NCBI GenBank assembly: GCA_030704615.1
Contig: CM060731.1
Location: 78,492,001-78,556,000, forward strand
Source: Takakia lepidozioides
Lineage: Eukaryota > Plantae > Bryophyta
Direction: 5' to 3'
DNA length: 64,000 nucleotides
The notes beneath the pieces are model-generated. The model made no database searches, was not told the origin of the DNA, and worked only from the letters and a program-made list of their open reading frames with translations. The number at the start of each line of letters is the position of its first letter. The first letter of the stretch is position 1. Positions 3,938 through 34,445 of this stretch are shown piece by piece. A program made the translations under genes and the position numbers.

Positions 3938-4430
3938 TCACCAGTAATCCCCACAAGAACAAACCCCGTCATGGAAGTGGTCATGGAAGTGGTGAAAGCG
4001 GCTGGTATCCCGTACAGTAACAGTTCGCCCAGCAATCTTCGAGATGCACTTGGTGGCGTGTGACACTCACCACATACCCGAAGGTTCTTATTGACATGGA
4101 CTGGCATCCCAGCTGTGGTGCTGATGAGCCCAAAGGCAATGGCCAGCTTCTCACTGGTGGCAAAGAGAGAATTGCTTCATGTCCTCCTCCACATCATGCA
4201 ATACAAAGTCTGTGTTACGCACATACCCAGCCTGCTTCATCCACCCAGACAAGCCGTTCAGCTCACCATGGATCTCCTCAAGTTGTGGATGCAACTCATC
4301 TTCTACAAAAAAATGTGTGCACCTGATTACCCACCTCAATCCAGCTGCACCCTGGCTCCTTTCTGATACCTTTGTCCTCCATCATTTTTCTTACCTTAGC
4401 TCCACCTCCCAGCCGCAGCATAGATGTTTG
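3938..4430 (-). pseudogene. PLS-class PPR protein C-terminus (E/E+/DYW deaminase domain), frameshifted
   Basis: Pieces in different frames: [92 protein letters not shown]-stop. Contains a 12-bp internal duplication; no PPR array visible upstream. Confidence 0.9.
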
Positions 4431-5619: not shown

Positions 5620-6542
5620 TTGGTTTTTTTTTTTTCTTAAGAAAGGGGACGGAGGCCCTCTTAATCAAATTAAAACGAGGAAAAAATAACCTCGAGGCCA
5701 TAAGGTTCACAAAGCGAGGCCACTTCAGGGCCGCAGTAACCACAGAGTCAAACTAGCAACAAACCAACTCGCTACCAGAGCCTACAAAGAGCATAATCAG
5801 AAACCAGAGCATACACCCAAAAGCTGAGATAGCTACACAAGATAGGATCAACGTGGAGCATTAGGGGCCTGAAAATCCAAATGGGCATGAATCTTGGAGC
5901 TTCTAAGCTTGCGGTGACGCCGATTGATGTCCTCGTTGCGCTCTGCAGGGGGGGGGCAGTGATATGCTTCCACATTGCTTCCCAATTCACCTGGAAGGGC
6001 ATGATATGAACCCACTTATCAGCCCACTTTGACATGGGAACCGAGAACCCCAATGACATGGAGTAACCCATATTAGCAGAATACTTGAAGAATGGGATAT
6101 TCCCATGCCAAGACCACTCCCCTGTATCAAATGGGAGGTTCACCAAGGCTTTCTTCCCATACCAGAAGAGCCAAGAAGTTCGGGCCCACAGGGCCAGGTC
6201 ACTGGAAGGATCAAATAACGGGTCAACCACGCCCGAAGCACCATCCACCACCCGAACAGAGAAGAGTTAATCTGGAGGACGAGTCCATTGCTAACCTGCC
6301 AGTGTTATAAACCTGAAAGCTGAGACCAAAACCCAGGTTGCCTGAGATGTTCGAGCAATAAGATGCATTGAGGAATAGAATCCTTGCACCCTTTCCAAGC
6401 AGGGAGCTGATTATGGACACCACTGAGCAAGGAGGACCAAGCATTTGGTTATAGCACTAATAATGGTATTCCAAGTATGACGGGTCGTTGAGCCCCTACA
6501 TATTGAACAGCAAAATCAGCAGCGAGTGGACCAGAAAGCCCT
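5620..6542 (-). mobile_element. 3' part of a decayed L1-type LINE (continues at 20836-21110)
   Basis: Poly-T tract at ~5620-5636 (poly-A tail on the minus strand) and Trp-rich sequence resembling the region C-terminal to a LINE RT. Confidence 0.5.
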
Positions 6543-8865
6543 TGTCAAGTTATTTTACCACTAGTGTGAAGTTAGCTAGGAAATAACTAGCTTTTATATA
6601 TTGACATTTGGGATTGACCCAAGTGTATCTTCACGGCAGATCGCGGTGGGCTCATCTTTCTCGAGTTGAGCCTCACCGTGTCTAGCTATGGCGTCGTAGT
6701 GTGGATTCCCCATGGCATGGGGTGCACTTGGCTCGACTTAATATATGAGTGATGTTTTCATGTGCAAGTATGTGAGTTTGAGAGAGCTTGTGTGCTTGTA
6801 TCATTTCTTTCTTTATCACTCGAGAAAGATCAGCTCAAGTCTGTGAATGCCAGGTTCGAGTTAGTTGTAGCACTTGTGTTTTCAGTTCATGAGAAGCGGT
6901 TCAGCCTAGAGTGCAAAGGCGAACAGGTTGCAGGTTTGCAATGGATAGAGAGGCGGGTAGCCTATGTTGAAGGGCGGCGTTGCATAGCTCAACGCTATGG
7001 CAACCAAGTTTGGGCTTCTAGTGTGAAGCGGAGGAGATGCTGGCCACAAGTGGGCGAACTGGTGGTCGTCTTCTTCAGCTGCAGGCCGAGTTAAGGAGCT
7101 GCAGGAATGTGTATTGCGTATGGGAAGCTAGCATGTTACAGGTTGAAGATGATATGATCAGCTCCAGGTATTTCTGCCCGAAACTAGTTGTTGCGGGTAG
7201 ATGAGGAGCAGCCAAATGGTGGAGCTGTGAGGGGATGCATCGCAGCCCATTGGGAGCTTCAGCTCCAAGCTCATGAAGAGGTATGAGTGAAGAGAGGGGA
7301 TTGGTCCCTCTTGTGTGCAAATTTGTGCACTTGTGAAGCATGTGCTGAGTTGGAGTTTCAATTTGAAACTCAGCAGTGTAAGGGCTCTTGGAGTGGCAAG
7401 AGCGGGGCTGGAATGGCAGCAACGAGGCGCTCTAGAGCCAGGGGATAGTGCAGGTGCACCAAATTTGTAAATGTGTGTATTTTCAAATTTGTTTTTGTGA
7501 GCTTCATGAAGAAATGGAGCTTGTTGGGCAGCATATTGCTTGCTTGTTGAGTTTAGGGTGCCTTTGGTGGGTCGTGAGAGCCCAAGAGAGCATGGCAATA
7601 GGTCTGGTTGCTTCGCAGAAGCCATAGTTCGGCGGCAGCAGGTGCAGGAACAAACCCCGGTTCGGGGAGAGCTCGGGAACGCGTGGGAACGCCCAGGAAC
7701 GCCTCGGGAATGCATGAGAACTCGTGGGGAGTTCCAGGGAACGCAGGGAACAGTGGCCGTGATGGGCTGTGGGGGCGGTATCACAAGATACCACGAGCCC
7801 AGGCCGTGACTATTGACCGTGACCGTTGACCGTGACTGTGGGAAGCCATGGTGCAGATACCACGGGTTGGCACGGTGACCAGATGGTGGGGATGGCGGGC
7901 CGTGAAGGCTCGTGGGCGTGGTACCACGGGGTATCACGGGGCAGCCCGTGGCCAACGAGCGCCTAGGGCGGGCCGTGAGGAGTCGTGGCGGTTGGAGCCA
8001 CGGAAGGCCGCGAACAGGCAGAGTAAAAATAAAATTATTTAAATTAAATTTAAAAATTTAAAAAAAAAATCACTCGTTTCGTGGGACCTTGATGGGGAGG
8101 CTGGGCTCTAAAGAACAACGGTTTTGAGCTAGCTAATCTGGCAGAACAGTCGGAATTGCCTCCCTGTTGTGTTTTAACAAAGGGGATTACTTCCCTGTAG
8201 GTAATCTTTTCGGGTTCTCAGCCCAATTCTTAACTATGGGGGAGACCAGCCTGCAGGTAATTCCTTTGGACAGAATGTTGTTGGGGCCTATATGTACCTC
8301 TATTTGCTCCATTTTTGAACCTTCAGCGAATGGTGTGGTTTCCTGAGGTGGTTCCATTCTGAGGAATGGCTGGTGGACGTAAGGAGGCACTGGCGGACCC
8401 TATGGAGGCTTGCATAGGGCCTTGGAGGCCAAGTTTCATGAGCTCGTGGAGAGCGGTTTGAGGAGTGTCTACATGATGCTCTCATGGTCATGCAAGTGAG
8501 AGAAGTGAGAAAAAAGAGGGTGTTGGGATGAGAGCGTGTTGGGGATAGGCATTGCTTTAGCTCCCGGGGGGTGCACTCTTTATAAACTGTGTGTATCACG
8601 TGCGTTCGTCGCCTAATAAAAAAACCCCCTGTATACGGGTCCTTGGATAATTTATACCCCCTCCGTACATACTTTTTGAAGATTATAAAATCCCCTCCTG
8701 TAAATATACAAAAAATTTACAATTTTCGAAAAGTACCCCTTCTGTATGTATATTCTCATTTTTCATCATTAAAAATAACCCTCCAATATGTATATGTATG
8801 TTTTTATATTATATCGAATTTATTCATTTAAAACATAATAAAATCTAACAAATTAATTAAAAAAA

Positions 8866-9360
8866 TTATTTGCCTTTGATAAAGTTGTCAAAGACTTTTC
8901 GGTCATTTGCATCAAGAACATATGTGTTTGACTTGACATTGTACTTTAAACATGCTAACGCGATAATGGAATCCAAATCAACCATCATGTTATCCGTCAA
9001 ATCGTACGTATAGACCCCTCCTCGAATTTTTTGGTACCATGCTAACCCAATCTCCATATGAGAAGGACGCTCCAATAAATCAACAGAATCCCTACATTCT
9101 ACAAACCGCTTATTGATTTTCTTCCGCATTCTTTGAACCCTGCCCAAATACCAAGTGCCTTTGGTTGCTCCTCTGCAGGTTTTCCCTGGTCTACCTTTCC
9201 TGTTTGTAGTTTGGATCGCAGTCTCCCCATCAACAAAAAATACAGCACAATCCGAACCCAATCCCAAGCTCGTGGCTTTGTTGCTGGTAGTTGGTTTGTT
9301 TTCTCGGCTTTGTTGCCGCTGCTGTTTCCAGTTGACCATCCACCCACATTGTCCCACCAT
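8866..9360 (-). pseudogene. Probable C-terminal fragment of the transposon-encoded protein
   Basis: Protein-like 164-aa ORF (DCAVFF..GTWYLGRVQRMRK..WY..YTYD) ending just inside the left TIR and cut at its 5' end by LINE sequence; family not recognised. Confidence 0.4.
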
Positions 9361-9379
9361 TGACTGGGGTCAGAAAAGT

Positions 9380-10060
9380 GTCTCATTCCAAAGCTTCTCT
9401 TCATATCTGTGGTGCTATTGTAGGGTGACTTCAATGCCCAAGTGGGCAAAGGGCTCCATCAGGACGATATCATTGGGTCTTATGGTGAGGACGAGCTGAA
9501 TTCTAATGGCAGACGGTTAATTAACTGTCTGGAAGAGCTTCAGCTTTTGACCTTGATTAACAAGACAAGAGGTGACCAAGTGCAGTGGACTCGTGAGAAA
9601 TCCCAAACTGGGGAACGTTCCATTGTGGACTATATAATGGACAAAAAATTTGTTCCCCCAGTGTGCCAATGTGTTGATCGACAGAACTGATATTGGTACC
9701 TCTGACCACTTTCTGGACTGAGATCAAAAGATGTTTTCCCAAGGCCAGAGTAGAAGAGATTCTCAAGGACCTGGACCTGGATCCGCAAGTCTTGACCCTG
9801 CTGGATAAATCAGACTTAGAGGCTGTAGTGTCCAAAGCCATGTCTATTGCCATGAGATTGTCTGATGAAAATGAAGTTAGGCATAAAACTTCCCTGAACT
9901 TGTTTCTAGTCAGTGACATGGGGGAGGACATCTTGGATGACCTAAGGGTCCACCCACTCTCGGCACTAGACTGAAATTTAAACTCAGGGAAGGAAGCCTA
10001 CCTTTGAACATGAAACAGAAGCAGAGAGGAAAGGGGGAGTGCACTCTCCCAAGTGAACCT
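9380..10060 (+). mobile_element. Non-LTR retrotransposon fragments (APE endonuclease + C-terminal region)
   Basis: GDFNAQVGKG..NSNGRRL..SIVDYI..DH endonuclease motifs. 9745-10050 is an inverted homolog of 10935-11230. Confidence 0.8.
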
Positions 10061-10819
10061 GCATCATTCAGTTGGCAAGACCGTGTCTGAAAAATTGATC
10101 CATTTGAAGACACCACGGTGCAGCTGAGCACAGCCTGACATGACAACAATTAAACATCATACTGAGACAAGAGAAGCAGTCAAGGACACAGTCATGCATA
10201 TGGCAGCAAGTGATCACCCTTCAAACATGATTGAAAACATACATGAGGTCAAAGGCAATAAGAAATCAGCGAAGGGTACTGCAGCTAACAGTTGGAGTGT
10301 CTTTAAAGACAAAGGGAAGAGAAAGAAACACTTCACTGGCAATGAGGGGAGGCTGTGGAAACGCCAAGAGGATGGCACAAATGATAGAAATAACAGGGCT
10401 GGGCAAAGGATCCTGTAGGAAGAAGAAAGGGTATGTCAGCATGGAAAGGACGTGCGGCTCATTCCAACAGAAAGGGGAACATTCGTGCAGTTAAGTACAA
10501 CAACCAATTGCCCTTCAATTATGGCTGGAATTTTCCAAAAGGCGAGGGATGATAAGGATGAGATTGTACTCATAAGACGTTGTTTGCCGTAGCCTTGTGG
10601 CCATTGACCCGCGCCCAGTTTCAGTGGGAACAAAAGGAACAGGGCTGACGTTGGTAGTAAGATTTACCATCGTATAAGGAATTAATCGGGTTTTCCATAT
10701 ATCCTCTAGAAAACCCTTCACACAAGCATCAATCTGCTGTGTGTGATTTGCCCAAAAACTAGGCCTCAGGAGGGCCTGGGCTTTTGGCTCAGCCTCGAGA
10801 CTTTCAAAGTTGGTAAACA

Positions 10820-13200
10820 GGGGTACAGGCACAATTCCCTTGATAGAATTGAAGAGAGCTCTCTTTGGTGAGAGAACCCGGACAGCGTATCAGAAAATGA
10901 ATACTGTCTTCAGATTGCCCACACAACGGACAATTGCACTCTCCCTTTCCTCTCTACTTCTGTTTGCTGTTCAAAGGTAGGCTTCCTGCCCTGAGTTTAA
11001 ATTTCAGTCTAGTGCCGAGAGTGGGTAGACCCTTGAGGTCATCCAAGATGTCCACCCCCATGTCACTGACTGGAAACAAGTTCAGGGAAGTTCTCTGCCT
11101 AACTTCATTTTCATCAGACAATCTCATGGCAACAGACATGGCCTCAGACACTACAGCCTCTAAGGCAGATTTATCCAGCAGGGTCAAGACTTGCGGATCC
11201 AGGTCCAGGTCCTTGAGAATCTTTTCTACTCTCTTCTGCCAGGACTTAGCCTGTTTGACAGGGCGGTCCTGTTTCCAAGATATAGAGTCAATCAACTTAG
11301 GATATCTGGTGTTGGGCATATGTTGCAGCTGACCCCACCATCTGACCTTGAATTCATCTCGTCGGGAGCTTAAGGATGGAATGCCCAAACTCACCCCGAA
11401 CAGCCACATTGGCTGTTTTGGAGCATGCTGACATACACTCCTTAAGCACCCCCACTTGAATGGATTCTAAGACTTAGCCTGGTTGGAGTTATCAACCCAT
11501 ATAGCAGATCCGTACTCCAAGGCAGGTCTAATAACGCGACAAAGCATGGTTTTCTTAACCTCAGAGATGACCCCTCTGCAGTGGAAAAAATTAGTGAGCC
11601 CCAGAGCTTTGCCCTTGCCAGTTCGAACAACTTTCCGGATATGTGCATCCCAATTACAATTGGAGGAAAACTCAACGCCCAGGTAAGTGTAGGAAGGGAG
11701 GACCGGGATCTCTTGGCTACCCCACTGCCACTTAAGATCACTTCCTCCCTCTCCTCTGTCGTTGAATGCTACCACTGCACATTTGCTGACATTAGCCTAG
11801 CCCCCAAAGATCAAAGTATCTCTTCGCGCAATTAATCAACTCCTGAGTGTGATGCCACGGTAGTTCCCCGGTTCTTCTCTGTCACCCTTCTTGTATAGAC
11901 TGACAATGACCCCCTGTCGCCAGCGAAAGGGGATCATTTCAGTCTTCCAGATAAGGTTAAAGAGGAGAACTAGGGCCTCTATCATGGGATCGCCACCGTG
12001 CTTGATAAGCTCGTTGACAATACCATCAGGTCCACCAGCTTTATATCCATTTAAATGTTCAATTGCTTCCACAATCTCAGAAGAACTAATGGGAGCGTTA
12101 TAAGCCATTGAAATATACTCCAGTTCATCAGGGCTGTTTTGAATCATAGGAACAATTTTTCCAACTGTGTCCCTCCATTCAGCAGAAGACCCCTCACTGT
12201 TAGACCTAGAAGTTCTGCCAAGGATACTGTAGTGATTTTCAAAGGTTTTGACAATGTCAACCGATGAAGTCACCACTGCACCTTTAGTAGTCTTCAGCGC
12301 TTGTACTTGCTGACCGTTTTTAGGCTTGTACAAACGTTGAAGGGCCAACCATAATTTCTTGTTATTACCACCATGGTGGTTTGAGTTTATTTCACTGTAT
12401 AACTTATCCCAGTATAATTTCTTCTGAGACCTAACAAGCTGATTGATATCTTTCCGGAGCTGATAGTACCTCGCCCACAATTCTCTGTTGGTTTTCAAAT
12501 TGCAGCACTCTTTATAGAGGGCTCGTCCTCACCAAAAGGCCCAATGATATCGTCCTGATGGAGCCCTTTGCCCACCCGGGCATTGAAGTCACCCAATAGC
12601 ACTACCTGACCTTTGGCAAGGAATGAAGCACAGTCCAGCTTTACATCTTCGAAGGCTTTGTCTGCGTCAGCACTAAGGGTCCCCTCTGTGGGCATGTAAA
12701 CACAACCCACAAAGAGGTCCTTCATACTCATGCCGCCTTTCAGATTCAGTTTTAGCCAGATACTATGTTCGTACCTCAAACCCTTCTTGATAATTTCACA
12801 ATATCAAACAAGAAATCACGGACAAAGAATCCAACCCCTTTTTGACCGCGTTTGGCAGAGGCTGCCTTGAGAGTACACATCCTACCTGCCCATTTATAAC
12901 CATTGACATCTCCAACCAGTTTATCCGAAGTTTCCCATGTTTCTTGCCCAGCACAGATATGAATATCATTAGTCCAAAGGACTTGTCCCACTTCGAGTTG
13001 TTTCCTTTGGTTAGTAAGCCCTGAGAAGTTGAAAGTGGCCAGCCGCAAGCCAGCCCTTTGCATGTGAATTGTTTGTCGTCTAGGTAGGCTTGGGATTGCT
13101 CCTGGTATCCCAACCGTTCTGCAAAGGGGGACAGTTCCCCCATGTGTAGATTTTGCTCGTCTTGTGTGAACTCTTGAGTACAAATCCTTCAGATTCAGGA
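10820..13200 (-). mobile_element. Internally deleted LINE (APE endonuclease + RT), probably RTE/L2-like
   Basis: ATFNFSG..QETW..GVGF, CVYMP..LLGDFNARVG, KAGGPDG..W..YKKGD..NYRGITL, YTYLG, RPALEYGSAIW, C-terminal Cys/His motif; frameshifts and deletions. Confidence 0.9.
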
Positions 13201-13721
13201 CGTTCAGGTTCTGTACACTTAGGGGCATCTTGTTCCCTCTGGCTGTTTGGATTCAATAAGGATGAGAATAAGGCCTGATACAGTGAGTACAACCAGTTGT
13301 GTCACGCCATCATTATAGGAGAAGAAAATAGGCCTAATGTGCTCATTCCTCTGATGATTGGGAATCTTGATGCCCCAGTCCTCCTTTCATTGCTGCACAA
13401 CAACCACCACCACACCCGCATATCATCAACCGATCAGCCCAGGCTGCCCCCACATTCCCGCGCACTTACTTCATCCCCTTCGATTCCTGGCCTCTACATA
13501 CATCACAACCCAAACCTTCTCCCATCAGTGCCCCACCACATTCTGGTGCCCTCCCATTGTCCTACCATGCCTGTGGAGAGGAAGGGGAGACGAGAGGAGG
13601 AAAAAAGAAGCCTCGGAAGGGAAGGCGAACACGGAGAGGAGGAGAAAGAAAAGAGAAAGCCGCGGGAGGTCATGGGAGAAAGATCGTGGGCGAAAAAAAA
13701 AAAAAAAAACAAACATAAACA

Positions 13722-13792
13722 AACGACGATTCCACGATTCGATCCCGGATGCATCGCGTCGTAATCGCCATTCTTACCACTACCCTATCCCC
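13722..13792 (-). pseudogene. Degenerate tRNA-derived sequence
   Basis: Minus strand has GTAGTGGTAAG (A-box-like) and CCGGGATCGAATC (B-box-like) followed by a T-run; the acceptor stem does not pair well. Confidence 0.3.
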
Positions 13793-14405
13793 TAAAAAAC
13801 TCAACACCCCCGCCTGTAAAATTTATTTAAGGTTTTTTAAACCCCCCTCTGTATGTATAATGTTGTACATGGGGGGGTTTAAAATACCCCCTCCCTGTGC
13901 ACGCACTTGGCTGGTACATTAATGAGGAGTGTAACCCCCCGGCGTTTTAGCTTCCCTTCCTCGTAGTTTTCCACCTTCTCTGTAGGCCGAGCCTTTCCGT
14001 AGGTGAGCAAGTGTCAGTAGACACTGTGGAGTTGTAAGTGTGTGGGAGTTGTTGTTTTCTTCTTGTGTTTGGATCCCTTCCTACACCTCATGCTTGATGT
14101 GCCCATGCTAGTTTTGTGTGGTCGCTTTGATTTTATAGGTGGTTGACTCGGGCTTTAGATCGCCGATCCAACCCTAGAGCATGCTGTCGATGGTGAGGCT
14201 GGGTTGATGAGCAGTCAGACCATCTTTGTTTCTCATGTGGTGAGGTTAGAGGTGATGACAAGCCAACCATGGAGTGCCTGCGGTTGATGCAAGTGCAGAT
14301 GCAGGCTAGGTTAGGACCTAGTATTCCAAACCACTAAGCCGCATCAGGTTCTCTACCCAGTTACCTTGTGGAGAGGGGTTAGGGACATTTTCATGACCGG
14401 TTTGA

Positions 14406-17400
14406 GTGTCAGTTTGTCAACACGGGGTGCCACTAGTTGATGGGAAAAGTGCTGGTACGAGCACTAGCGATACTAGCGGGGTTACGAGACGGGTGTGCGG
14501 TTTAGGCCCCTTCACCCTCCTGTGTCTTCTACGGAAGGTTCCAATTTGGATTGTGAATCAGGAGAACTCAGCCACCTCCAGCAGAGCAGGATGACATGCA
14601 TGGTACGGCGGAGTTGCCTGCCATGGTTGCTCACACTCCATGATGGATACGAGCAAGGATTTGCGCAGGCTGCTATGGACTGGTACAACAAGCCTGGGTA
14701 GAGGCCTTCGTACCGTCAGGAGAAAGGAGAGTGCAGTGATTGCACCAGGAACCACCTTAGTTGTTGCCATTGGACACCACACCTCTTGTGTGGCATTGCC
14801 CGGATGAAGACATATGTCTTCTGGACTTGTTTGGCGGGATCAGCACTGGATTGGCTTGGCAGTATTGCAGGCAGGTGTACGAGTTCGACGTTACCTGTAT
14901 GTGGAGAGGGATGAGACTGCATGTGCTTGTCTCACTGCGCCATGTGCTCATTTAGTACCAGCAGTACGGCCCGATTTGTTGGCAGTGTCTGCAGTTCGTG
15001 GATACCAACAAGCTTTGGCCAGCAAAGTTCCACGACCGGACTTGATGCACACTGGCCATCACCCTGGCCCGAGAATCACCCATCAGTGGCACATTCTCCA
15101 AGATGGTTCTGCTGGAGATACAGCTTGATGAAGCTACAAGTGGTGCAAAATCCGCACCATCTCCCAAAACAGACCCGTCCTCGAGTCTCGCAATCCATTG
15201 CCATGCCCAACAGTGTTGCTGGATGCAGCTGCAGTGGGTCATGGGCTCATCGTCCACGGCTATGGTGGACTAACTTGATGCCACCCGCACTGCTCAAGCG
15301 TGCATTTGATGGGGGTGCAGCGGTCAGCACCCTCACAGTGGATAGCATTTTGGACACACAGGGAAGCAGTCTCAACGTGTGAGACACGATGACCGTTCCG
15401 CCTTTGGCAGTGGTCAACAGGATGGGTCACACAAGCAGCATGTCCCTACACTGCTCAGCTTCCCAGGATCCCATGCTTTTCGGGATGGTGACCTGGCCTC
15501 TTGTGGGATAGCCAGTTGCAACATTAGTGGAGCCCAATGCTGACGAGCTCGAGCGGGCGATGGTTTTTAACACAGGTCCCACCACGGCGGTGCATCTCTT
15601 TCTGAGCATCACGTCGTCAAGGTGGGGGCAAGCAATGGATCTCATTGCTTGACCTAGATTATCAGCTTGGCTATGGCTGAGCAGCGCAGAGTACGGAGTA
15701 CACTTCCCTTCATGGTCTCCCTGCTACCGAGAACGGTACAGGTAGCGAGTTGGGGCGAGCAGGTGAGGACCACGAGGTGCAGGCCGCATCCATGGCATAC
15801 GTGGGATGTGCTCGAGGTTCAGAAGGAGTTGGCAGCCAATCGGCGGTGATGGATCAGGTTGGGGATTTTTTCTCGGATTGAGGAGGTCCTCAAGGATGGG
15901 ATGATGGGGCAGGATGAGATATTGTCACTGACAGAGAAGCAATGGTCACTGCTCAAGGGTTGCAGCATAGCAACCACGGGACGCGTCTTCTACCTCTAAG
16001 CCTGTTGGACTCAAGGTTGCAGTCACGAGGACAACGGGAGCCTGATGTTGGACCTATAGTCACCGGAGGAGAGAGAGACGACGTATACGGCGGTTCTTGA
16101 GGGCTTACAGGAACTGCTTTGCCTTCAGTTTGAAGGACTTAGGAGCACTGAAGGGTCAAGAGATTCGCATTGAATTGGCTACTGACACGCCAATCTTTCG
16201 GAGACCCTATAGATACAGTGACATGGAGAGGTCCTTGATTCAGATGAGAACTCAGGACCTTTGGAGGCTGGTTTGGTGGAGCTATCTGGGGGAGAGTATG
16301 CTTCAGCCACAAGTGATGCCAGCCAAGAACGATGTCTTTGGCAATTGGACGGAGAGACGTATGTGCGGTGATTACCGGCCTGTAAATCGTCAGGACCAAG
16401 TCCGATAGGTATGCCATGCCAACACCAGAGGAGATCTTTGATGCCATTGGGCATGCCAAGGTCTTTAGCATGTTGGATTTACAATCCAGATATCACCAAT
16501 TGCCGATCAAGGAGGCAGATAAGCAAAAGACGGCATTCTGTGGGATCAATGAGCACGGGAAGTATTGCCTATACCAGTGGCGGTTCTTACCATTTGGGCT
16601 TAAGAACGCTCCGATAGAGTTTTAGAGAGTCATGGACAGGATTCTAGCAGGGGTGGAGTTTGCTCGGTGCTACATAGATGACATCATCATCTTTAGTGCT
16701 ACGGTGGGAAGAGCATGAGAGACATCTTCAGGGGGTATTTGAGCGCTTGAGGGCACACGGATTCAAGATACATCCGGGAAAGTGCAAGTTTTTCCACAAC
16801 CAGATTGAGTATCTGGGTCACATGATATATCCTGGGGATTGGGGGGCAGCTAAGGTAGAGTCCATTGCACAGGTTCCACGCCCCACGGATATGAGCCGAG
16901 TTTTGAGCTTTCATGGGGTTAGCAAACTATTATAGACGGTTTGTTAAGGGTTTAGTGCCATTGCAAAGGCTCTAACCAAGCTGACCAGGTGGACCAGGAG
17001 TGGCAGTGGGAGATGAGCAAGAACAAGCTTTTCCAAGAGCTCAAGGCGAGGTTGACCTCGGCGCCCATCTTGAGACGACCTATCAGGGGGCGTCCTTTTC
17101 AATTGCATACAAATTGGAGCATGCTGGGGCTTGGAGCGGTGCTCACACAGGTGGATGATGAGGGAAGAGAGTTCGTAGTGGCTTATGCTAGCTGCTCGAA
17201 CAACGTTGCAGAGTCTAAGTATAGCTCATATGAGGGAGAATGCTTAGCTGCAGTGTGGGCCGTGGCACACTTCAGGTGCTATCTATATGGCAATCTCTTC
17301 ACCCTTGTCACGGATCACCAACCACTCAAGTGGTTGATGGAGTCGACAAGCTTACGGGAAGCTTGCACGGTGGGCACTCATACTTCAAGAGTATGACTTT

Positions 17401-18297
17401 CAGGTGGTGCATCGATGGCATGGTGAGACGGACGAGGAGATGATGCCCGGATGGCATGCATCTGCATTTCTGTGTATCTTGGCAGCGGAAGGCCAGGTTG
17501 GACCTGCAATAGGGATGACTATAGATCAAGTGTCTGAGGACCCTGAGGCCAGCAATGAGCAAGGTGGCGCCAAAGATATACATGAGGATTCAGTTGTGTT
17601 GGACTACCTCCGCACTGGAGACACTGCAGCCACTGTGACTGCCAAGGAGAGAGATCAGATCCTACAACGAGCCAAGAGGTTCAAGTGGGAGGGGACACAC
17701 CTGCTCCGAGTGTGGGAGGATGGTCGAGTGAGGATTGTGCCTCACCCAACACAGCGGGCACGGTTAGTGCGGCATGCCCATGAGGAGTTGGGGCATTTTG
17801 GGGTGCGACGCACTCATAGTCTACTGCAGGGGCAGTATTGGTGGCGTGGTATGCACACAGAGGTGCAACAATTTGTGGGGTGCATGGTGTGTGACAGGGT
17901 GCATGCTTCATTCAATGCCCCTACTCCACAATTGCACCCTCTTCCGATCATGGGATTGGGCTACAGGTGGAGTTTTGACTTCGCAGGGCCGTTGCCACTG
18001 ACCATGCGCCACAACAAGTACGTGTTGGTGATGGTGGAGCACTTCTCCAAGTGGATTGAATTGGTTCCATTGCCTGATAAGGCTAGTGAGGGAGCTGCTA
18101 TGCATTCTTGCATTATGTGCTTAGCCGATTCGTTGGTGCCCAGCTGAGGTACTCACGGACCAAGGGAGAGAGTTCTTGGGGGAGTTTCAGGCTTTGTGTG
18201 ACAAGGCCTTGATAGACCAACGCACCACTTCTCGGGATCATCCTGAGGCCGATGGCTTGGCAGAGAGAGTTGTTCAGACAGTAAAGAAGGGTTTGCA
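14406..18297 (+). pseudogene. Gypsy copy 1 polyprotein remnant: gag N-terminus, (gag/PR deleted), C5-MTase, RT, RNase H, integrase
   Basis: ICLLDLFGGISTG, HRPRLWWTN, RMCGDYRPVN, PFGLKNAP, YIDDII, LHTNWSMLGLGAVL, HEELGHFG..CMVC, DFAGP; many indels. Confidence 0.9.
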
Positions 18298-18299
18298 AC

Positions 18300-19029
18300 G
18301 CTACATCTATGTATCACAAAAAACAATCTATATATAAATATATATATACATATAAATATTTCCTTCAAGTTCCTTCAAGTTCATCATAAGGGGGTCTCTC
18401 TTGTGACGCCGGGGAGTTGTAACCTCCACAGCCTTTAGTGCCCAGCCCCAGCCCCAGCCCAGCATCGTCGCCGTTGTTGAACCCCCCACCGTCAGGCGCC
18501 CCAAGCGACGTCTTATGTGGACCTAAACTAACCACAACACCATTGCGACCCCCCTGTGGCGACGCCGTTCGGACCCCCCGACGTCGCAACGTTGGGCGTC
18601 CCAGCGCGGGGCGCCCCAACGACGCTTTTGTGAAGTTGAGGGCCGCAAAGCCCAAAAAAAAAAAAAAAAAAAAAACTCTCACTGTGGTGATGTCGTTGCG
18701 ACCCCTGGCGTCGCAGAGGCGCTGGGGCGCCTTTAGTGACGCTTTTTGCGACACTGAGGCGTCGTTATTTTTATTTTTTATTTTACTTTACTTTTATTAT
18801 TTTATTTTTATTCCGATGCGGGGCGTCGGAAGAAAAAAAATCCGTCGCATCAAGAGCCATCTTCCTCTTCATGCCACCTTACGACGGCTGGGGGCTCGTA
18901 ATGGTGTCGCAGCGGGGGTTTGCGACGCGGGGCGTCGCAAAAAAACGTCGCGGGCTCGCGTCGCGGGCTCAGCCGGCGGGCGTGGGGGCGCGGCTGGCGT
19001 CGCAAACCCCCCCCCCATTTGCTATAGTG
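18300..19029. mobile_element. One end of a CACTA (En/Spm) element
   Basis: Terminus GCTATAGTG (reverse complement CACTATAGC) with many direct and inverted GCGACGCC subterminal repeats; opposite end not found. Confidence 0.65.
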
Positions 19030-20520
19030 CTGTGCTGAGGCTAGTGATGAACAAGTGGTTCCATATAACATGAGGATTCGGTTGTGTTGGACTACCCCCT
19101 CCGCACTGGAGACACGGCAGCTAGTGTGATTGCCAATGAGAGGGATCAGATCCTGCAACGAGCCAAGAGGTTCAAGTGGGAGGGGATACACCTGCTTCAA
19201 GTGTGGGAGGATGGTCGGGTGAGGATTGTGCCTCACCCAACACACAGCGTGCACGGTTAGTGCGGCATGCCCTGAGGAGTTGGGGCTTAATTTTTTGGAG
19301 TGCGACGCACTCATGTCTATGCAAGTCTACTGCAGGGGCAGTATTGGTGGCGTGGTATGCACACAGAGATACAACAGTTTGCGGCTAGGTGCATGGTGTG
19401 TGACAGGGTGCCGTGCTTCATTCAACGCCCCTACACCATAGTTGCATCCTTTATCCATCATGGGATTGGGCTACAGATGGAGTCTTGACTTCGCATGGCG
19501 TTTGCCAATGACGATGCTTCACCAAAGATACGTGTTGGTGATGGTAGAGCACTTCTCCAAGTGGATTGAGTTGGTTCCATTGCCTGACAAGACTAGTGAG
19601 GGGTTTGCGTGATGCATCCTGGATCGTGTGCTTAGCCGATTCGGTGCTCCAGCTGAGGTACTCACGGACCAAGGGAGAGAGTTCTTGGGGGATTTTCAGG
19701 CTTTGTGGTGATAAAGCCTGGATAGACCACCGTACCCCTTCTCGGATCATCCTTGATGCCAATGGCTTGGCAGAGACTCTCGAGTGTACGACGGTGAAGA
19801 AAGGTTTTTGCGCAGGTAATTGGCCTTGCAAAAGGGAAACCTAGGAGATTGGGATCTTCAGGTACCTTGTTACCATGGGCTACAGGTTTAGCAAGCAAGC
19901 ATCACTTGTCTCCTTATCACCATATTTCGTTCTCTTGTTGGCGAGCCGGATTTGCTGCATCTATTCGCATGATGATGCAGTAGTCCTCAACCTGATTATC
20001 CGGATAGGTGACACAAGCATGTGCCCCGAGGGCAGAGTTGGTTCAGAGAATCATGTCTATGGGCTTGAGAATCTTGCTATTGTCCCAACACCGAGACATA
20101 TTGAGGTATGCCACATACGTGGAGGGGGATATCGGCCAGGTGTTCGGCGTTTCCACCCTGGGACTATGTTGTATCTGCAACACAGCGCCTACGAACTTGG
20201 ATGTCACAGGCAGGACGGATTCTAAGGGTCAGGGAGGTGTTACCTTCAGGAGTGTTGATTCTGGAGGGTCAAGATGGCTGGTAGGAAGGACCATGTGCGT
20301 AATATGTGCCATCACCTTCCACATGTGGATAGGAGGATAGATCCCCAACCTTGTAGTGGTACCTGCAGGATTGCGTTGCATGCTATGTGGGCATGCTCGT
20401 GGTGCCGCCACTATGCTGGTGTGTGATCGATGCTCAAGAGGTTAGCACATGGGATGCTTGACACCACCTCTTGAGAGGGTTCCTGATGGAGATTGGTTAT
20501 GTCCACACTGCTTGGGATAG
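19030..20520 (+). pseudogene. Second, more decayed integrase + PHD segment of Gypsy copy 1
   Basis: Homologous to 17540-18297 and 32720-34185; ends LRCMLCGHARGAATMLVCDRCSRG*HMGCLTPPLERVPDGDWLCPHC. Confidence 0.85.
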
Positions 20521-20835
20521 TGATAGTGGATATGACTAGTGGCAGCTAATAAGACATGGGAGGCCAAGCTCATAGGGGCTTGTGGCTACCTGGACTTAGG
20601 GCACCTAAGCTCCAGCTAGGGGGGCGATTGTGATGGACTAGTGGCTGCACTAGTGGTGGCTAGTGGCAGCCTAGTGGTGGACTAGTGGCTGCACTAGTGG
20701 TGACTAGTGGCTGCCTAGTGGCAGCCTAGTGGTGCACTAGTGGTGGACTAGTGATAGACTAGTATTTGGTGTGCACATGTATTGTGTGGTTTTGGACAAC
20801 GATGTAGTTGTGTAGCGATATGTATGCGCACGACA

Positions 20836-21110
20836 CCCCAAACATTACCGACCGTAGAGATCCCATGCTCCTCCCATGGAGCCCACCTGGCAACACAAGA
20901 TTCCAGCCCCATCTACAGCCCACCACCAAACAGAGGTTGCCTGATAACCTCGTCCCTGGTAACAGGAGGGGAGCGTTGAAGATGAGTGCGGACCTTAATC
21001 CATGCCGCCCAAATGGCAGACCAGAGGCTGGAGCCGATAACAGATTTTTTGTTAGCAGATTTAATGACCTGTTGAGAGACGTCATCCACTCACATAACCA
21101 TGCTGTAAGT
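20836..21110 (-). mobile_element. Upstream continuation of the L1-like LINE split by Gypsy copy 1
   Basis: Minus strand reads ..RDEVIRQPLFG..WAPWEEHGISTVGNVWG up to the TSD, and LINE-like sequence resumes at 6542. Confidence 0.5.
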
Positions 21111-25671: not shown

Positions 25672-26301
25672 TATGAATAATTAAGGGAAATTTGATAAAG
25701 ACTTTATAACCAAGGGAGGTACATTCATTGTAAGTTTTATCATGTGGGAAAGTTATAACATGGACTTACCATTTATTGGCTCGTCTTTATTCTAAAGAAG
25801 AGACTACGCATCAGTGTCAAAAATCGCTAAGCCCCTGTTCGTTTACTTAGAGGTGAGCCAACAAACGGCTAGTGGCTCCTCCTTGTGAATAGCGAAATCT
25901 ATTTTCATCTATAATAAACTTGAAAAATCATCCATTTATTTTTCATCAGTTTGTCAAGTTAAATAAGCACAGTGTGAAAACAGCTAGCATAAAACTAGTT
26001 GTTTGTATTTAACACTTGGATTTAGGTCAAGTGTTAAATCAGGTGTCAAGTTTAGTTTGACACCTGGTCCGTCTTATCTTCACGAGAGCGGCAGTCGCGT
26101 GGCTCATCTCTCTCGAGTTGAGCCTGCGCGACCGAGCTCTTGCATCGTTTAGGACTGAGTGTGCTTATGATGGGAGTATAGGTTGTTGTGGGGTGGAGTC
26201 CCCATAGCTTGGGGTGCCCCTGGCTCGACTTCTATTCTAAAGAGTGATGGTTTTGGTTGTCATGTTTTGTGTCAACAGTGTGTTCTTAGCTTTTCTTATC
26301 A

Positions 26302-26317
26302 CTCGAGAGAGATGAGC
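26302..26317 (+). promoter_or_regulatory. Self-priming primer-binding site
   Basis: CTCGAGAGAGATGAGC lies directly after the LTR end TTATCA and is the exact complement of GCTCATCTCTCTCGAG at 26102-26117; it lacks the TGG start of a tRNA PBS. Confidence 0.8.
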
Positions 26318-26687
26318 TCTATCTAGTTTTCTAGTGCTAAGCTAGATACGATGTTTTTGTTTTTAAGCACTATTATAATGTAGCTTGGTCACGGGGAGCC
26401 TGCAGTTAGACTGGTTAGGTGTGCAGAGTGGAGCAGAACAAAAAGCTTGAGATGTTGTTACGATTTTTGTCAACCTGTGTATATATCTGAGAATGGGGAT
26501 TAAGTGGCAGCAATAAAGAAAGAGGATATAATGAGGAAGCGGCCAATGGGTGACCACTGGAGCGGTGATTTCAGGGCAGGCTGTGGTAGCATTCTAGAGT
26601 TGTTCGATTAGTGATGCGGCTGCAACCAGCCACCCAGCAGCGACGCCGCATTGTTCTAGTCTTGGAGACGTAAAGAACAAACACTTC

Positions 26688-28150
26688 ATGGTGGATGCTC
26701 CGAAGGGCCATCTGGGAATTAGGGACTGCTATGCGGAGTTTGTGGACGAGAAGGGTATGTCTGTGCCTCTGAACAACGTGTACCTGCACCACTGGATCAC
26801 GTACGAGTTCTCTGTACCGAGCAATGATGTAGACACCCATAAGGAGATGCTACTGAAATCTGTGGAGAAGAAGCACTCTTCGTCTCAATCTACCTTACAC
26901 GCTGCCTCATTTGAAGGCTGCTGGCTCCGGCGTGAAGCTCTCAGCTGGACAGACATTGATGCAGTACTTTGGTGTTGGTGCGGAGACCAGGCGCACCAAG
27001 TCAACTATCCCCGCGCCCTTTGCTGAAGAGACTGCAGCTCCTTCCCTGCTTGCTGAGGGCTACAAGCCGATATGGATTCTTAATGTCCACGGCCGTGACA
27101 CACGGGGGGCCGTCAACAAACTAGGGTGCAGTGAGTGCCGGTTGCTTCTTTTCTACTCTTCTCTGAAATCTTTTACACCTGTTTTGAGGAAGTTCTCTAT
27201 AGGAAGACAATGTGTAAGGGCCTCGTCCCCACCAGTCACTAAATGCCTCACAAATGGCTGCAGCCCACAAGGTTTACCTTAGCCCATAATCCCTATTGAC
27301 CTGGCACAGAGCTATAGCGGACAACAATCCGTTGCAGGGAGCTGAGTGATAAATTATGGGCTGACGTTGGCGTCATTTTAAAAGCATGAGATGGATTCCA
27401 GTACTGCTTCTCCAGCCCCTAGCTTATCATGTGCCGTCGTGTTAACCCTTACAAAGGAGGGTAGAAAATAGAGAAGAAGCTAGGGGCCGGTGTACTGCCA
27501 TAAGGTCGACAGTGCCTGAGCGATCCAGTTGTGTTTATTATTTTACCCGAATTAGAGGCTACAACAATTTGCAGTCAGCTACTGGATTTGGCGTGTAATC
27601 TTCACAATGTGACTGTGGACTGCAAAGGAGATCCTTTAGTAGAAAGTTACCTGGGATGCCTTTAGTGCTGCACAGATGGGAAGCGCTGTGTTGTGAAGGA
27701 GGGCTTTGAAGGCGATGAGCTTGAGATGACCATCTACCTACAGTACACATGGGAATATATTACCTGGGATGAGTGCGTTGAGCCCTGTCAAAGGTGGTCA
27801 TCGGGTTCACCAAATCTATCGAGTATATTGTCGAGGGATGTGGCAACACTGATCCCGCTTCTCCGGAATGTGTAGATACACGGGAGAGGATAATAGGTGC
27901 CCCTGTTTGAAGAGATTGGTGATTTAGCCGAGGCAAATGGGAAGAAGGGAGCGGGCCTTCTGTTATGGCTGCCACCAGGAACTCCTGTTTGCAGGCATCT
28001 CTTTCACAAGCTAGTTGCCCCTTTGGAGATGATGTGATCTGCGCAGTGTCGCACTTGCATCCTTCAGCCCTGGATTGTACTATGTTTGGGGAAGATGGGC
28101 GTGTGATTTGCTACTCTCCTCCAATCTGTGGTACTGGACAGGCGGCTGAC
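26688..28150 (+). pseudogene. Stress up-regulated Nod19 (SURNod19)-family gene fragments inside Gypsy copy 2
   Basis: PKGHLGIRDCYAEFVDEKGMSVPLNNVYLHHW, QYFGVGAETRRT, WILNVHGRDTRGAVNKLGCSECR, YLQYTWEYITWD, VICAVSHLH..FGEDGRVICYSPPICGTG match the recalled family pattern; frameshifted. Confidence 0.75.
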
Positions 28151-28237
28151 ATCAGATGTATCGCATCAGCATACACCATTGCGTTGGTGAATCCAATTTG
28201 GTTGGTGCATTAATCGATGGGCACCTGGGAACGGTGA

Positions 28238-29468
28238 CTATACTGTAGCATAAGCCACTACGAACTCTCTTCCCTCATCATCCACCTGTGTGAGCACCGC
28301 TCCAAGCCCCAGCATGCTCCAATCTCTATGCAGCTGAAAAGGACGCCCCCTGATAGGTCGTCTCAAGATGGGCGCCGAGGTCAACCTCGCCTTGAGCTCT
28401 TGAAAAGCTTGTTCTTGCTCATCTTCCCACTGCCACTCCTGGTCCACCTTGGTCAGCTTGGTTAGAGCCTTTGCAATGGCATTAAATCCCTTAACAAACC
28501 GTCTGTAATAGTTTGCTAACCCCATGAAAGCTCGAACTCGGCTCACATCCGTGGGGCGTGGAACCTGTGCAATGGACTCTACCTTAGTCTGCTGTACCCC
28601 CAATCCTCCAGGATATATCATGTGACCCAGATACTCAATCTGGTTGTGGAAAAACTTGCACTTGCCCGGATGTAACTTCAATCCGTGCGTCCTCAAGCGC
28701 TCAAATACCCCCTGAAGGTGTCTCTCATGCTCCTCCACCGTAGCACTAAAGATGATGATGTCATCTATGTAGCACCGAGCAAACTCCACCCCTGCTAGAA
28801 TCCTGTCCATGACTCTTTGAAACTCAGCGGGAGCGTTTTTAAGCCCAAATGGTAAGAACCGCCACTGGTATAGGCAATCCTTCCCGTGCTCATTGATCCC
28901 CCAGAATGCCGTCTTTTGCTTATCCGCCTCCTTGATCGGCAACTGGTGATATCCGGATCGTAAATCCAACGTGCTAAAGACCTTGGAATGCCCAATGGCA
29001 TCAAAGATCTCCTCTGGTGTTGGCATGGCATACCTATCGGACTTGGTCTGACGATTTACAGGCCGGTAATCACCGCACATACGTCTCTCCGTCCAATTGC
29101 CAGACATCCTTCTTAGCTGGCATCACTGTGGCTGAAGCATACTCTCCACCAGAGAGCTCCACCAAACCTGCCTCCCAGAGATCTTGAGTCCTCATCTGAA
29201 TCAAAGACCTCTCCATGTCACTGTATCTATAGGGTCTCCGAAAGATTGGCGTGTCAGTGGCCAACTCAATACGGATCTCTTGACCCTTCAGTGCTCCCAA
29301 GTCCTTCAAACTGAAGGCAAAGCAATTCCTATAAGCCCTCAGGAACCGCCGTATACGTCGTCTCTCTCCTCCGGTGACAATGGGTCCAATGTCAGGCTCC
29401 CAATTGTCCTCCGTAACTGCAACCTTAAGTCCAGTGGGCTTAGAGGTAGAGGACCCGTCCCGTGGTTG
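28238..29468 (-). CDS. Gypsy reverse transcriptase + N-terminal RNase H (one frameshift near 29105)
   Basis: RRPYRYS, RMCGDYRPVN, LDLRSGYHQ, PFGLKNAP, YIDD, YLGH, DWSMLGLGAVL..VVAYA. Confidence 0.95.
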
Positions 29469-30850
29469 CTATGCTGCAACCTCTTGAGCAGTACCCCCTT
29501 CCTGCTCAGTCAATGACAAGGCCTCATCCTGCCCCATCATCTCATCATTGAGAACCTCCTCATCCCGAGAAGAATCCCCAACCTCATCCATTACAGCTGC
29601 CTTCGCTGCCAACTCCCTCTGAACCTCGAGCACCTCCCACATGTGCCATGGATGTCTACACCTCGTGGTCCTCACCAGCTCGCCCCCACTCGCTGCCTGT
29701 ACCGTCTCGGTAGGCAGAGAGACCGTCAAGGGAAGTGCACTCCGCACTCTACGTTGCTCAGCCATAGCCAAGCTGACAATCCAGGTCAAGCAATTGAGAT
29801 CCATTGCTTGCCCCAACACCTGACGACGTGATGCCTCAGAAAGAGAAGGCACCGCCGTGGTCCCAGTGGAAAACCCCATAGCCCGCTCTCGCTCGTCGGC
29901 ATTAGGCTCCACTAACTGCTGCAACTGAGCATCCCACAGGAGGCCAGGTCCACCATCCCGAAAAGCATGGGATCCTGGGAAGCTGAGCAGTGTAGGTAAT
30001 GCTGCTCGTGGTTGACCCACCCTGTTGACCACTGCCAAAGGCGAACGGTCATCGTGTCTCACACGTTGAGACTGCCTTCCTGTGTCCAAAATGCCATCCA
30101 CGGTGAGGTGTGCTGGCCGCTGCACCCCATCAAATGCACGCTTGAGCAGTGCGGGTGGCATCAAGTTAGTCCACCATAGTCGTGGACGATGAGCCCGTGA
30201 CCCCACTGCAGCTGCATCCAGCAACACTGCTGACCCAAGCCACGACCGGACTTGATGCACACTGGCCATCACCCTGGCCCGAGAATCACCCATCAGTGGT
30301 ACATTCTCCAAGATGTATGCTGGAGATACAGCTTGATGAAGCTGCAAGCAGCGCAAAATCCGCACCATCTCCCAAAACAGACCCGTCCTCGAGTCTCGCA
30401 ATCCATTGCCATGCCCGGCTGATGAATGCCCTTGGCAGGGCCAACCTGCCACTATCAGATCAATGGAGCCAACCTGCTCCAAATCTTGCGCCCCCAACAA
30501 GGAAATGTCTGCTGGCAAGGCTTGTTGGTATCCACGAACTGCAGACACAGGCAACAAGTCAGGGTACTGCTGTACCAATTGAGCCACATGGCGTAGTGAG
30601 ACGCGTCGTGCAATCTCATCCCTCTCCACATACAGGTAACGCCTTACCCGCACACCTGCCTGTAGCACAGCAGCCAATCCGGTGCTGATCCCGCCAAACA
30701 AGTCCAGAAGGCAAATGCCTTCATCCGGCCGCTGCCACACAAGAGGTGTGGTGTCCAATGGCGACAACTGAGGTGGCCCTGGTGCAATCACCGCACTCTC
30801 CTCCTCTCCTGACGGTACAAAAGCTTCTTCCCAAGCTTGTTGCACCCGTC
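29469..30850 (-). CDS. C5 cytosine DNA methyltransferase domain (DNMT3-like) within the retrotransposon polyprotein
   Basis: Ordered motifs I LLDLFGGISTG, II VERD, IV AGWPCQ (catalytic Cys), VI ILENV, VIII AHRPRLWWTN, IX ERERAMGF, X RRQVLGQAM in an uninterrupted frame. Confidence 0.93.
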
Positions 30851-32284
30851 CATCTGCAACTTGCCAAATCCTTGCTCGTACCCCACAACGGAGTGTGAGC
30901 AACCATGGCAGGCAACTCCGCCGTACCATGCATGTCATCCTGCTCTGCTGGAGGTGGCACATCCTCTGCATGGGCATTGCCTTCCAGCAACTCTCCAGGC
31001 CAACTAACGGCAACTGTGAAGGCGGCTAGTGTTGGCATCTTGCCCCGCTGGGCAGCTGCAATACCCCCAATGAATGTCACAGGGAGCTGTGCACGGCGAC
31101 CATCCCCTGACTGCCATCCAGGCCTGTAGGATGCTGTCTCCTCCCAGAAATCCAGGGTGAAGCCCATGGGGTATAACACTGCCCCACCAACGAGGACATC
31201 GTAAGAGACCGCGTCTGTCACAATGGCCTTGGCTCGCATCACTGAGCCATCTACAGGATGATCCGGCTGCAGTCTAATAGCCAACTGATGCCGTGTCATG
31301 CCGCGAGCCTGCTCTGATCCTCCCAGAGATGTCTGTATCTGGAAAGGACAAGGCTCCATATCCGCCTCCATGAGGCCCAAACCTGCAATAGCAGCTCTGC
31401 CCAACATCAGTGGCTGAGCTCCTGAGTCCAACAAGACCCGCAGTGGCCGGTACTTCTTGCCTGCCGGTCCACTCAAAGTGAAAATGCCTCCCTGGTTGTC
31501 TAACAAGACAACTCCAGGTGTCACCATGGCGCGCTCAATGGCTGGCCTAGCTGGCAGCTCCGTCAACCTGGCAGCTGCAACTTGCCATGGCGCAGCCGTG
31601 GCAGTCTTGACCCTCAAATCCGAGGATCCCTCTGCCACTATACCTTCCACTAACTCCGCAGAAGATGAAGTGACCTCCCCACTCTCACAGAGAGTTGCTG
31701 CTAGTCTGAACACTGCAGCTGGTCTCACCCCCGGCGTCGCAATCATGGTTGCCGAGAACAGTGGGGCTTGACACACAGAGGTGGCTGCCCCCAATAACAC
31801 ACCGGCTGCACTAGCCTTGGTAGCAGGTGTCAGTGCTGCACGTGTAGCTCTCCCCAATGGCATAGTAACCTCCGCCTCGGTAACAGTCGGGCGAGAACTA
31901 GGTGCCATGGATGGCGTTGACACTGTCTCCGCCAAGGTGAATGACTGAGGCAGCCTCGCCTGACGGCTTGCCTCCCCACGTTGTGGATCCAACTCCACCT
32001 CTGCACCTCGTGGCTCAGGAACTCGTGCTGCTCCTCGAGTCACGGCTGCAGCAGACTCCACCTGCTCTAGTGGTAGTGCTGCTCCGCACATGAATCCCAT
32101 GCCTCCCATATCTCCTCCCTCAGGAGCAGGAGGTGGACCATCCCGCCTGGGAGCCGGTACCGCCTGAGCTATAGCCATGGCAGCGAGCCTCTGCTCTAGC
32201 TGCTGAAGCCGATTGGCCATGCCTTGGTCAACACCCTGACCTCCGCGTCCTTGGCCATGTGGAGCTTGCCCTTGGCCTGCACCT
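30851..32284 (-). CDS. Gag C-terminus / linker + aspartic protease
   Basis: LRVLLDSGAQP active site and YDVLVGGAVL flap/GxD-like region; homologous to 58283-59690. Confidence 0.85.
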
Positions 32285-32288
32285 CGTC

Positions 32289-34188: not shown

Positions 34189-34435
34189 GGGAGTGGATAC
34201 AACCATAGAAGGCTAACAAGCAACGCAAGGCCCAGCTACAGGATACCTTGAATACACGAAGTCCTGGCTCAAGTTCACAGATTGCAAGACGGCGACTAAC
34301 GATGGGGCTACTCTTGTACCCGGCCTCTTGGTCTATAGAGTTTGAGTACGATAGGGACAGTGATAGAGGACTTAGTACGGCTATGGCTATTACGTCTTGT
34401 AGCTATCTGGAGGTAGAGGGACCTATCCACCAGCT

Positions 34436-34445
34436 AGGGGGGCGA
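34436..34445 (+). promoter_or_regulatory. Polypurine tract
   Basis: AGGGGGGCGA followed by T-TGTG (start of B1); the same motif precedes B in copy 1 (~20618-20627). Confidence 0.8.

Follow-up and report, generated by a model that had tools for sequence, protein, structure and literature searches.

Repeat-free insertions and a candidate internal attachment site in a Dnmt3-carrying Ty3/Gypsy family from Takakia lepidozioides

We analyzed copy 1, a long terminal repeat (LTR) retroelement insertion at positions 6543–20835 of a 64,000-nucleotide stretch of the moss Takakia lepidozioides (contig CM060731.1, positions 78,492,001–78,556,000; the whole stretch is hereafter the window). Copy 1 carries a repeat, A, at its start and a different repeat, B, at its end, and has no terminal repeat; we denote this form A..B, and the full form of the family, with A at the start and B, A and B at the end, A..BAB. 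Among relatives of copy 1, A..B is a real and common form, about as frequent as the full form. For copy 1 itself, we see roughly even chances that it is one insertion that was already A..B when it was laid down, since the predicted cutting site of the integrase is a palindrome within the LTR.

Ends of copy 1 and of its relatives

As the first-pass annotation had claimed, copy 1 begins with the bases TGTCAAG, at 6543, and finishes with GCGCACGACA, at 20835. Repeat A (6543–6818, + strand), whose first bases are the right half of the palindrome, probably represents the 3′ part of the unique 3′ region (U3) followed by the repeated region (R) and the unique 5′ region (U5). Repeat B (20628–20835, + strand), the putative 5′ part of U3, is lengthened by an 11-bp tandem array and ends at the left half of the palindrome. 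The A of copy 1 is 80% identical to that of copy 2, a second family member in the window, over 258 ungapped columns, and 91% identical over 185 columns to the A of a third member, element 3 (63993–63790). Repeat B matches that of copy 2 at 86% over its final 84 bases. The ends are thus borne out by homology beyond a 7-mer, and a coincidental 7-mer at the A start was rejected because the homology to copy 2 and element 3 spans 6543–6818. No other A or B was found in 6400–21000, which upholds the reported absence of a terminal direct repeat.

The reported near-duplication of the target was also found, as CCCT at 6539–6542 and CCCC, in the flank letters, at 20836–20839 (both + strand). A match at three of four positions is expected for 5.8% of flank 4-mer pairs, and the same degree of match occurs in three of the six old A..BAB relatives with readable ends, so the imperfect duplication of copy 1 is typical of old copies. 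Contigs from the organism's sequencing runs connect the A end of copy 1 to its B start (6817 to 20627; 5 + 2 contigs) and its B end to its A start via GC or AC, and 26 contigs matching the B-GC of copy 2 run on into copy-1-type A. As judged by these joints, the outer A and B of copy 1 are of one subfamily. The left junction is spanned by one exact contig, of which only 27 bases lie inside A, and no contig joining 6542 to 20836 is present among the matches listed (15 joints; 506 further). Copy 1 is very probably a single insertion.

Copy 2 (25952–34969, + strand) has the full form A1-internal-B1-GC-A2-B2, with an AGTT duplication on both sides. A1 (25952–26301) and A2 (34534–34883) are 99.7% identical, B1 (34446–34531) and B2 (34884–34969) are 100% identical, the dinucleotide GC separates A2 from B1, and B2 adjoins A2.

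Relatives were taken from 80 metagenome loci, found in a scan with an integrase alignment; loci with the same flanks were merged. Thirty-four distinct 3′ ends are readable, of which 19 are B-only, 14 are B-A-B and one is B-A; three further 3′ ends are cut or damaged, and the remaining loci are not matched by the A and B probes. Nine distinct 5′ ends were found in the relatives, seven belonging to A..BAB copies and two to A..B copies, and with both window copies included all 11 start with A directly after the flank. The two complete A..B relatives, L003 (TACA) and L021 (TCAT), have perfect 4-bp duplications; those of the A..BAB relatives are perfect in three cases, three-of-four in three and unreadable in one, so that the 11 full copies, both window copies included, comprise six perfect, four three-of-four and one unreadable. 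In the organism's own runs, at least 42 and at least 35 contigs among the matches listed diverge where B ends and continue in flanking sequence that is unrelated (agreement 0.36–0.37); canonical ends at the B start or the A end are possible beyond those matches. The ends are thus family-wide, which sustains the first-pass interpretation on this point.

The form is kept in all 12 same-flank pairs from different contigs, which argues against random assembly collapse. B-only copies are spread over the tree, and their divergence (median 0.083 versus 0.087 for BAB copies; p = 0.68) and CG counts (p = 0.76) are similar to those of BAB copies, in an age comparison of 14 against 11 rows in which L060 and L067, which are one locus, are counted twice. 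Two 3′ ends have unusual surroundings. In L015 (1628–1929), included in the B-only count, the B end is followed directly by an inverted A fragment, and in L045 (3510–3985; the same as L046) the sole B-A 3′ end is followed by unrelated sequence and is either a canonical end or a failed joint.

The palindrome and the copied LTR

The palindrome at the insertion ends is GACAGCTGTC, and in full copies B and A are joined by CA-GC-TG. The B|A spacer is exactly two bases in 15 of 15 distinct loci, reading GC, AC, GT or AT, all transitions from GC. The A|B joints vary: among 11 read by eye in one lineage, two are blunt, five share two bases and four differ in other ways. This variation is independent of the tree and is seen in contigs of the organism's runs as well. 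The palindrome recurs in 9 of 26 more distant loci (two of the nine being one family) at approximately 45–66% integrase identity, and the pattern has 23 matches over all loci, repeats included, versus 2.8 expected. The natural complementary DNA (cDNA) ends of a distant lineage are without a conserved TG..CA. Taken together, the internal palindrome looks like an attachment site, as far as its sequence can tell, and it is highly likely that the family inserts at this internal site, with the integrase as the enzyme presumed to cut there.

The landmarks of reverse transcription are displaced from the inserted ends. A G-rich polypurine tract lies directly 5′ of B in the window, in copy 1 at 20618–20627 (+ strand), and is found at the same position in relatives. 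Directly after A is a predicted self-priming primer-binding site (6819–6836, + strand), whose score is reached by none of 200 shuffles; it is complementary, as an inverted repeat, to a predicted self-primer at 6647–6665 (+ strand), which would be the 5′ end of the RNA. Complementarity between mid-A and the sequence that follows A1 is at a level reached by 0–1 of 200 shuffles in 9 of 12 cases, where offsets of 0–3 were allowed for the real sequence and offset 0 only for the shuffles. Between copy 1 and copy 2, the priming arms differ by one change that has its matching counterpart in the opposite arm, and the fold formed by this pairing has z = −5.6. Approximately 30 bases 5′ of the primer segment, five cases of the more distant lineage have a TATA-like box. 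The purine tract before B and the self-priming site after A suggest that the copied LTR is B-GC-A. By standard LTR logic, the cDNA would then be BA-internal-BA and the inserted ends would fall within U3. The position of the insertion ends inside the copied LTR is thus supported by these sequence landmarks.

Formation of the A..B form

We propose the following sequence of events. RNA running from mid-A1 to A2 would prime itself and be copied into linear BA-internal-BA DNA. A staggered cut by the DDE integrase at CA/GC/TG would create two already processed ends, whose insertion would give the 4-bp duplication that is observed. End joining of the unused cDNA ends would yield A..BAB with a variable A|B joint, a variability that is seen; loss of these ends via a 1-LTR circle, via cutting at both sites or via annealing of the repeats during repair would yield A..B. 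Cutting and insertion before the free cDNA ends are resolved would fit the missing ABA..B form: after use of the left site, the ends could be joined (A..BAB) or annealed via B (A..B); if the right site were used, annealing via the longer A would mostly follow, giving A..B. Since A..B keeps one R region, such a copy is presumably a dead end. The interior of copy 1 was later damaged by insertions nested in it, by a deletion and by a swap between subfamilies, as its sequence shows. The first-pass annotation had offered two routes to A..B, a 1-LTR circle and recombination between B1 and B2; both are kept here, and double cutting and annealing repair have to be added.

We moderately favor formation of A..B at insertion over formation at some later time. 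A broader picture, to which we incline slightly less than halfway, is that of a widespread Gypsy clade of the green lineage whose attachment site moved into a U3 palindrome and in which biased cutting lays down approximately half of the copies as A..B dead ends.

Several points weigh against the proposal: (i) ABA..B is absent among the 11 5′ ends, which calls for an unexplained asymmetry; (ii) a systematic collapse of B-A-B by the assembler is possible in the metagenome relatives; (iii) every relative differs from its nearest neighbor by at least 6%, which makes the age test weak; (iv) copy 1 is a mosaic of two subfamilies and thus weak evidence by itself, so that the relatives carry the case; (v) a clear palindrome is absent within 2.5 kb of the integrase in 17 of the 26 distant loci, several of which end too soon; (vi) the self-priming score is reached by 4 of 200 shuffles for L021 and by 8 of 200 for L074, both marginal, and L003 fails the test; (vii) no contig across the right junction of copy 1 is present among the matches listed, which we count in favor of two joined insertions; and (viii) the cut, the circle and the transcript start are all deduced from sequence.

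The best-surviving alternative is that copy 1 was inserted as A..BAB and lost GC-A2-B2 later by recombination between B1 and B2, which we regard as unlikely yet as the most serious of the rivals. The subfamily of copy 1 has BAB members, as seen from the contig joints, where B-GC runs into copy-1-type A in 26 contigs and A of this type adjoins B of this type in 5 + 2 contigs; B1 and B2 are only 300–470 bp apart, and copy 1 has undergone several other rearrangements. Against such a loss, B-only ends occur as often as BAB ends without being older, and B is only 86–183 bp long.

A second alternative concerns the interior, in which the first-pass annotation had noted an integrase duplication and a complex history. 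Both are confirmed: copy 1 is a dead, nested, mosaic copy. Its 5′ internal non-coding region (6837–8555, + strand), with patches 63–72% similar to element 3, is followed by a later nested insertion of 5390 bp with DNA-transposon-like ends (8556–13945), the empty site of which is preserved as a joint of 8555 to 13946 in 3 + 2 contigs. This insertion contains a long interspersed nuclear element (LINE) at about 10560–13270 (− strand), with 268 loose contig ends at 10560; between 9409 and 12605, pieces of the nested LINE are inversely duplicated (9747–10043/10935–11232 and 9409–9496/12521–12605, 91–94% identical). A gag 5′ remnant (14293–14570, + strand) is 91% identical to element 3, and a deletion after 14570 has removed approximately 2.5 kb of the gag and protease sequence, where the alignment to element 3 jumps from 60895 to 58384. 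Next come a broken Dnmt3-like cytosine methylase region (14571–15643, + strand), identified by tblastn with the copy 2 protein P0001, in which 15030–15208 is inverted, and a broken reverse transcriptase and RNase H (16118–17357, + strand), identified by domain and translated searches. The first integrase piece (17539–18296, + strand) is of the copy-2-like subfamily and 97% identical to copy 2. It is separated by a foreign piece of 738 bp (18297–19034) from a second integrase piece with a PHD finger (19035–20511, + strand), which is of another subfamily and 90%, then 81%, identical to copy 2. Forty-six contigs depart from the window sequence at 18296, and the single end at 19029 of the foreign piece is presumably CACTA-like, a label we take from a motif scan.

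The duplicated integrase segments (17543–18294/19035–19807) differ by 10% and only one of them is near copy 2, so a one-time simple tandem duplication was rejected. Identity to copy 2 is 89–91% at 14571–16200 (97% in the small inverted piece), 96–98% at 16200–18294, and 90%, then 81%, after the foreign piece. As judged by this profile, the interior is a copy-2-like tract within the frame of another subfamily. Copy 1 had been put forward as independent support for the unusual ends; its ends are real, and the support it lends is weaker than claimed because the copy is mosaic and carries nested insertions. Self-nesting may be common in the family, as internal duplications or nested family members also occur in L002 (2438–5457), L045 (717–5156) and L060 (2540–6345), and the two B ends present in L061 belong to separate lineages.

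Conceivably, then, the two ends of copy 1 stem from two insertions joined by ectopic recombination or assembly error, and its A..B form is accidental. The mixture of subfamilies, with integrase pieces 97% versus 90% identical to copy 2 and 10% apart, speaks for this, as do many 1-bp indels relative to family contigs, the imperfect target duplication and the unproven contiguity of the flanks as a LINE. Against it, both outer ends are of one subfamily, the three-of-four duplication has the low chance given above (5.8%), both flanks share an AT skew (+0.19 to +0.27) and CpG depletion unlike the neighboring DNA, and A..B occurs with perfect duplications in L003 and L021. We consider this explanation improbable.

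With regard to the flanks, no LINE relative was found in two word-based protein searches, Pfam, PDB and two Atlas searches (all below 0.9), or by tblastx against the relatives' loci and the window. A HMMER search of 1.8 billion proteins with the flanks gave seven matches, and the three examined are repetitive or unrelated proteins. Read by eye, the minus strand of the flanks contains motifs that we take to be those of L1 ORF2, arranged in the expected order. The frame across the insertion site, also read by eye, is not continuously open, which speaks neither way, since the flank remnant has other frameshifts. Given these motifs and the similar base composition of both flanks, it is plausible, though not confirmed by the searches, that the flanks are contiguous halves of one L1, as the first-pass annotation suggested.

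Slightly less probable again is replication of the Ngaro/PAT type, in which RNA would run from A1 to B2, the ends would be rebuilt from an internal B-A template, and A..B would be a truncated by-product. The repeat layout equals that of DIRS-type elements (in the accessible text of PMC5890265), and the missing ABA..B would be accounted for. The purine tract and self-priming site, however, mark an LTR-type cycle; A1/A2 and B1/B2 match over their whole length, the variation of the A|B joints is unrelated to the tree, and the family has 4-bp duplications and a DDE integrase, with no tyrosine recombinase found in the frames and ORFs searched. Finally, a circle with two equal sites is rejected: the two-LTR-type copies are A..BAB in eight of eight cases and never ABA..B (p = 0.004 if the sites were equal), which does not fit such a circle without bias.

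Family membership, neighboring sequences and known systems

Domain searches assign gag, a C5 methylase, reverse transcriptase, RNase H, an rve integrase and a PHD finger to the family; a protease is seen in a by-eye reading only. The order reverse transcriptase–RNase H–integrase is present in copy 1 and in L018 and L003, and gag is present in element 3. Protein P0001 of copy 2 matches PF00145, with DNMT3A as its best PDB match, and a remnant of it persists in copy 1. The integrase is of the DDE type, its best PDB matches being Ty3 and foamy virus. Among named proteins, one of Coleochaete scutata comes closest (69%), and chlorophyte elements follow at 43–50%; no relatives were found in the viral contigs searched. 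Judged by its domains, the copy 1 family is a Ty3/Gypsy family with a Dnmt3-like methylase and a PHD finger. Its TG..CA termini and 4-bp duplications agree with the 4–6 bp of Ty3/Gypsy elements. Two full terminal LTRs are lacking, copy 1 being without a terminal repeat and copy 2 and seven distinct relatives having split repeats, and the primer site and purine tract are present but frame B-GC-A, not the inserted ends. The Dnmt3-like methylase lies inside Pol, as is characteristic of KnitGypsy-Dnmt3, and the A-coding-B-A-B layout is present in copy 2 and relatives; copy 1 itself shows A..B only, although B-GC-A joints occur in its subfamily. Although split direct repeats are present, a tyrosine-recombinase (DIRS/Ngaro) element was rejected, as no such gene was found in six frames of copy 1, the four large open reading frames (ORFs) of copy 2, and 55 of the 63 ORFs with 70 or more amino acids in L018 and L003. 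In the distant relatives L050, L069 and L077, a long coding-like region lies 3′ of the PHD finger, ahead of any end repeat.

The other family members in the window have peculiarities of their own. In copy 2, the gag-to-RNase H segment (28246–32287) is inverted relative to the integrase, which is either real or an assembly error; across the corresponding point, a 5-kb contig of another species runs colinearly with copy 1. The 5′ region of copy 2 (26640–26951) contains pieces of a host SURNod19 gene (PF07712) despite its 99.7% A-repeat identity. A 47-bp inverted match (91%) flanks copy 2 at 25793–25839 and 35057–35103 and may mark the termini of a small DNA element into which copy 2 was inserted. 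Element 3 (58291–64000, − strand), closest to copy 1 in its A, breaks off at 58291, has its A start outside the window and contains a long tandem array (61236–62270). Of host plant genes, an ALG11 exon (PF15924) lies nearby at 41907–42452 (− strand), and a remnant at 4050–4400 (− strand) is, from a by-eye reading of its motif, presumably PPR/DYW-like.

The A..BAB layout has been known since 2018, when KnitGypsy-Dnmt3 of Klebsormidium nitens was described with DIRS-type repeats and Gypsy domains (de Mendoza et al. 2018; PMC5890265, in its accessible text). The protein searches gave no named K. nitens sequence; as compared by description, that element resembles the copy 1 family in its Gypsy domains, the Dnmt3-like methylase in Pol and the A-coding-B-A-B repeats, and the accessible text is without a target duplication, palindrome, priming site, mechanism or A..B form; the name was found only there in a literature search. 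The accessible part of a 2026 preprint mentions streptophyte Gypsy-DNMT3 and gives no end structure. In the literature searched, as far as its text was available, neither an internal attachment site nor the A..B form was described. The chromoviruses Tf1/Sushi and Tcn1 similarly have no tRNA site and are predicted to self-prime from the RNA 5′ end, but have canonical two-LTR ends and a chromodomain, the latter not seen in the copy 1 family (Neumann et al. 2019; PMC6317226, accessible parts). The split-direct-repeat elements Ngaro, PAT and TOC1 share the A..BAB layout (PMC5890265).

For foamy virus, cleavage of the 2-LTR junction has been proposed, with a staggered cut in a palindromic CA..TG with a 2-base spacer (PMC1180852), and HIV-1 integrase cleaves 2-LTR junctions (PMC1905944, PMC4372172). 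As far as these accounts were accessible, the likeness is a staggered palindrome cut giving two processed ends, with a loss of two bases in foamy virus as in the copy 1 family, but the viral palindrome is created when the cDNA ends are joined to each other, and the colinear provirus carries both LTRs in full (PMC1180852). In the copy 1 family, by contrast, the palindrome would lie inside U3, be copied from RNA and lead to a permuted insertion. Ngaro, PAT and TOC1 use a tyrosine recombinase instead of a DDE integrase, whereas the copy 1 family has 4-bp duplications and LTR-type landmarks. A similar reaction is that of the IS3/IS911 circle junction, where an rve-type enzyme cuts abutted ends with a short spacer; unlike the copy 1 family, these are bacterial DNA transposons without reverse transcription.

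LTR elements are taken to insert both ends made by reverse transcription, and here the usual route of a family with a DDE integrase appears to lead through an internal site. With a natural, high-copy family of this kind, circles and internal junctions become testable as true integration substrates. Reference sets built with LTR-FINDER require two LTRs at 95% identity (PMC6317226, accessible parts), so that A..B copies, and probably also A..BAB copies, would be missed or misdated together with their Dnmt3-like genes. If true, the use of an internal site would be a third integration route for LTR retroelements, one that is largely invisible to LTR-based annotation.

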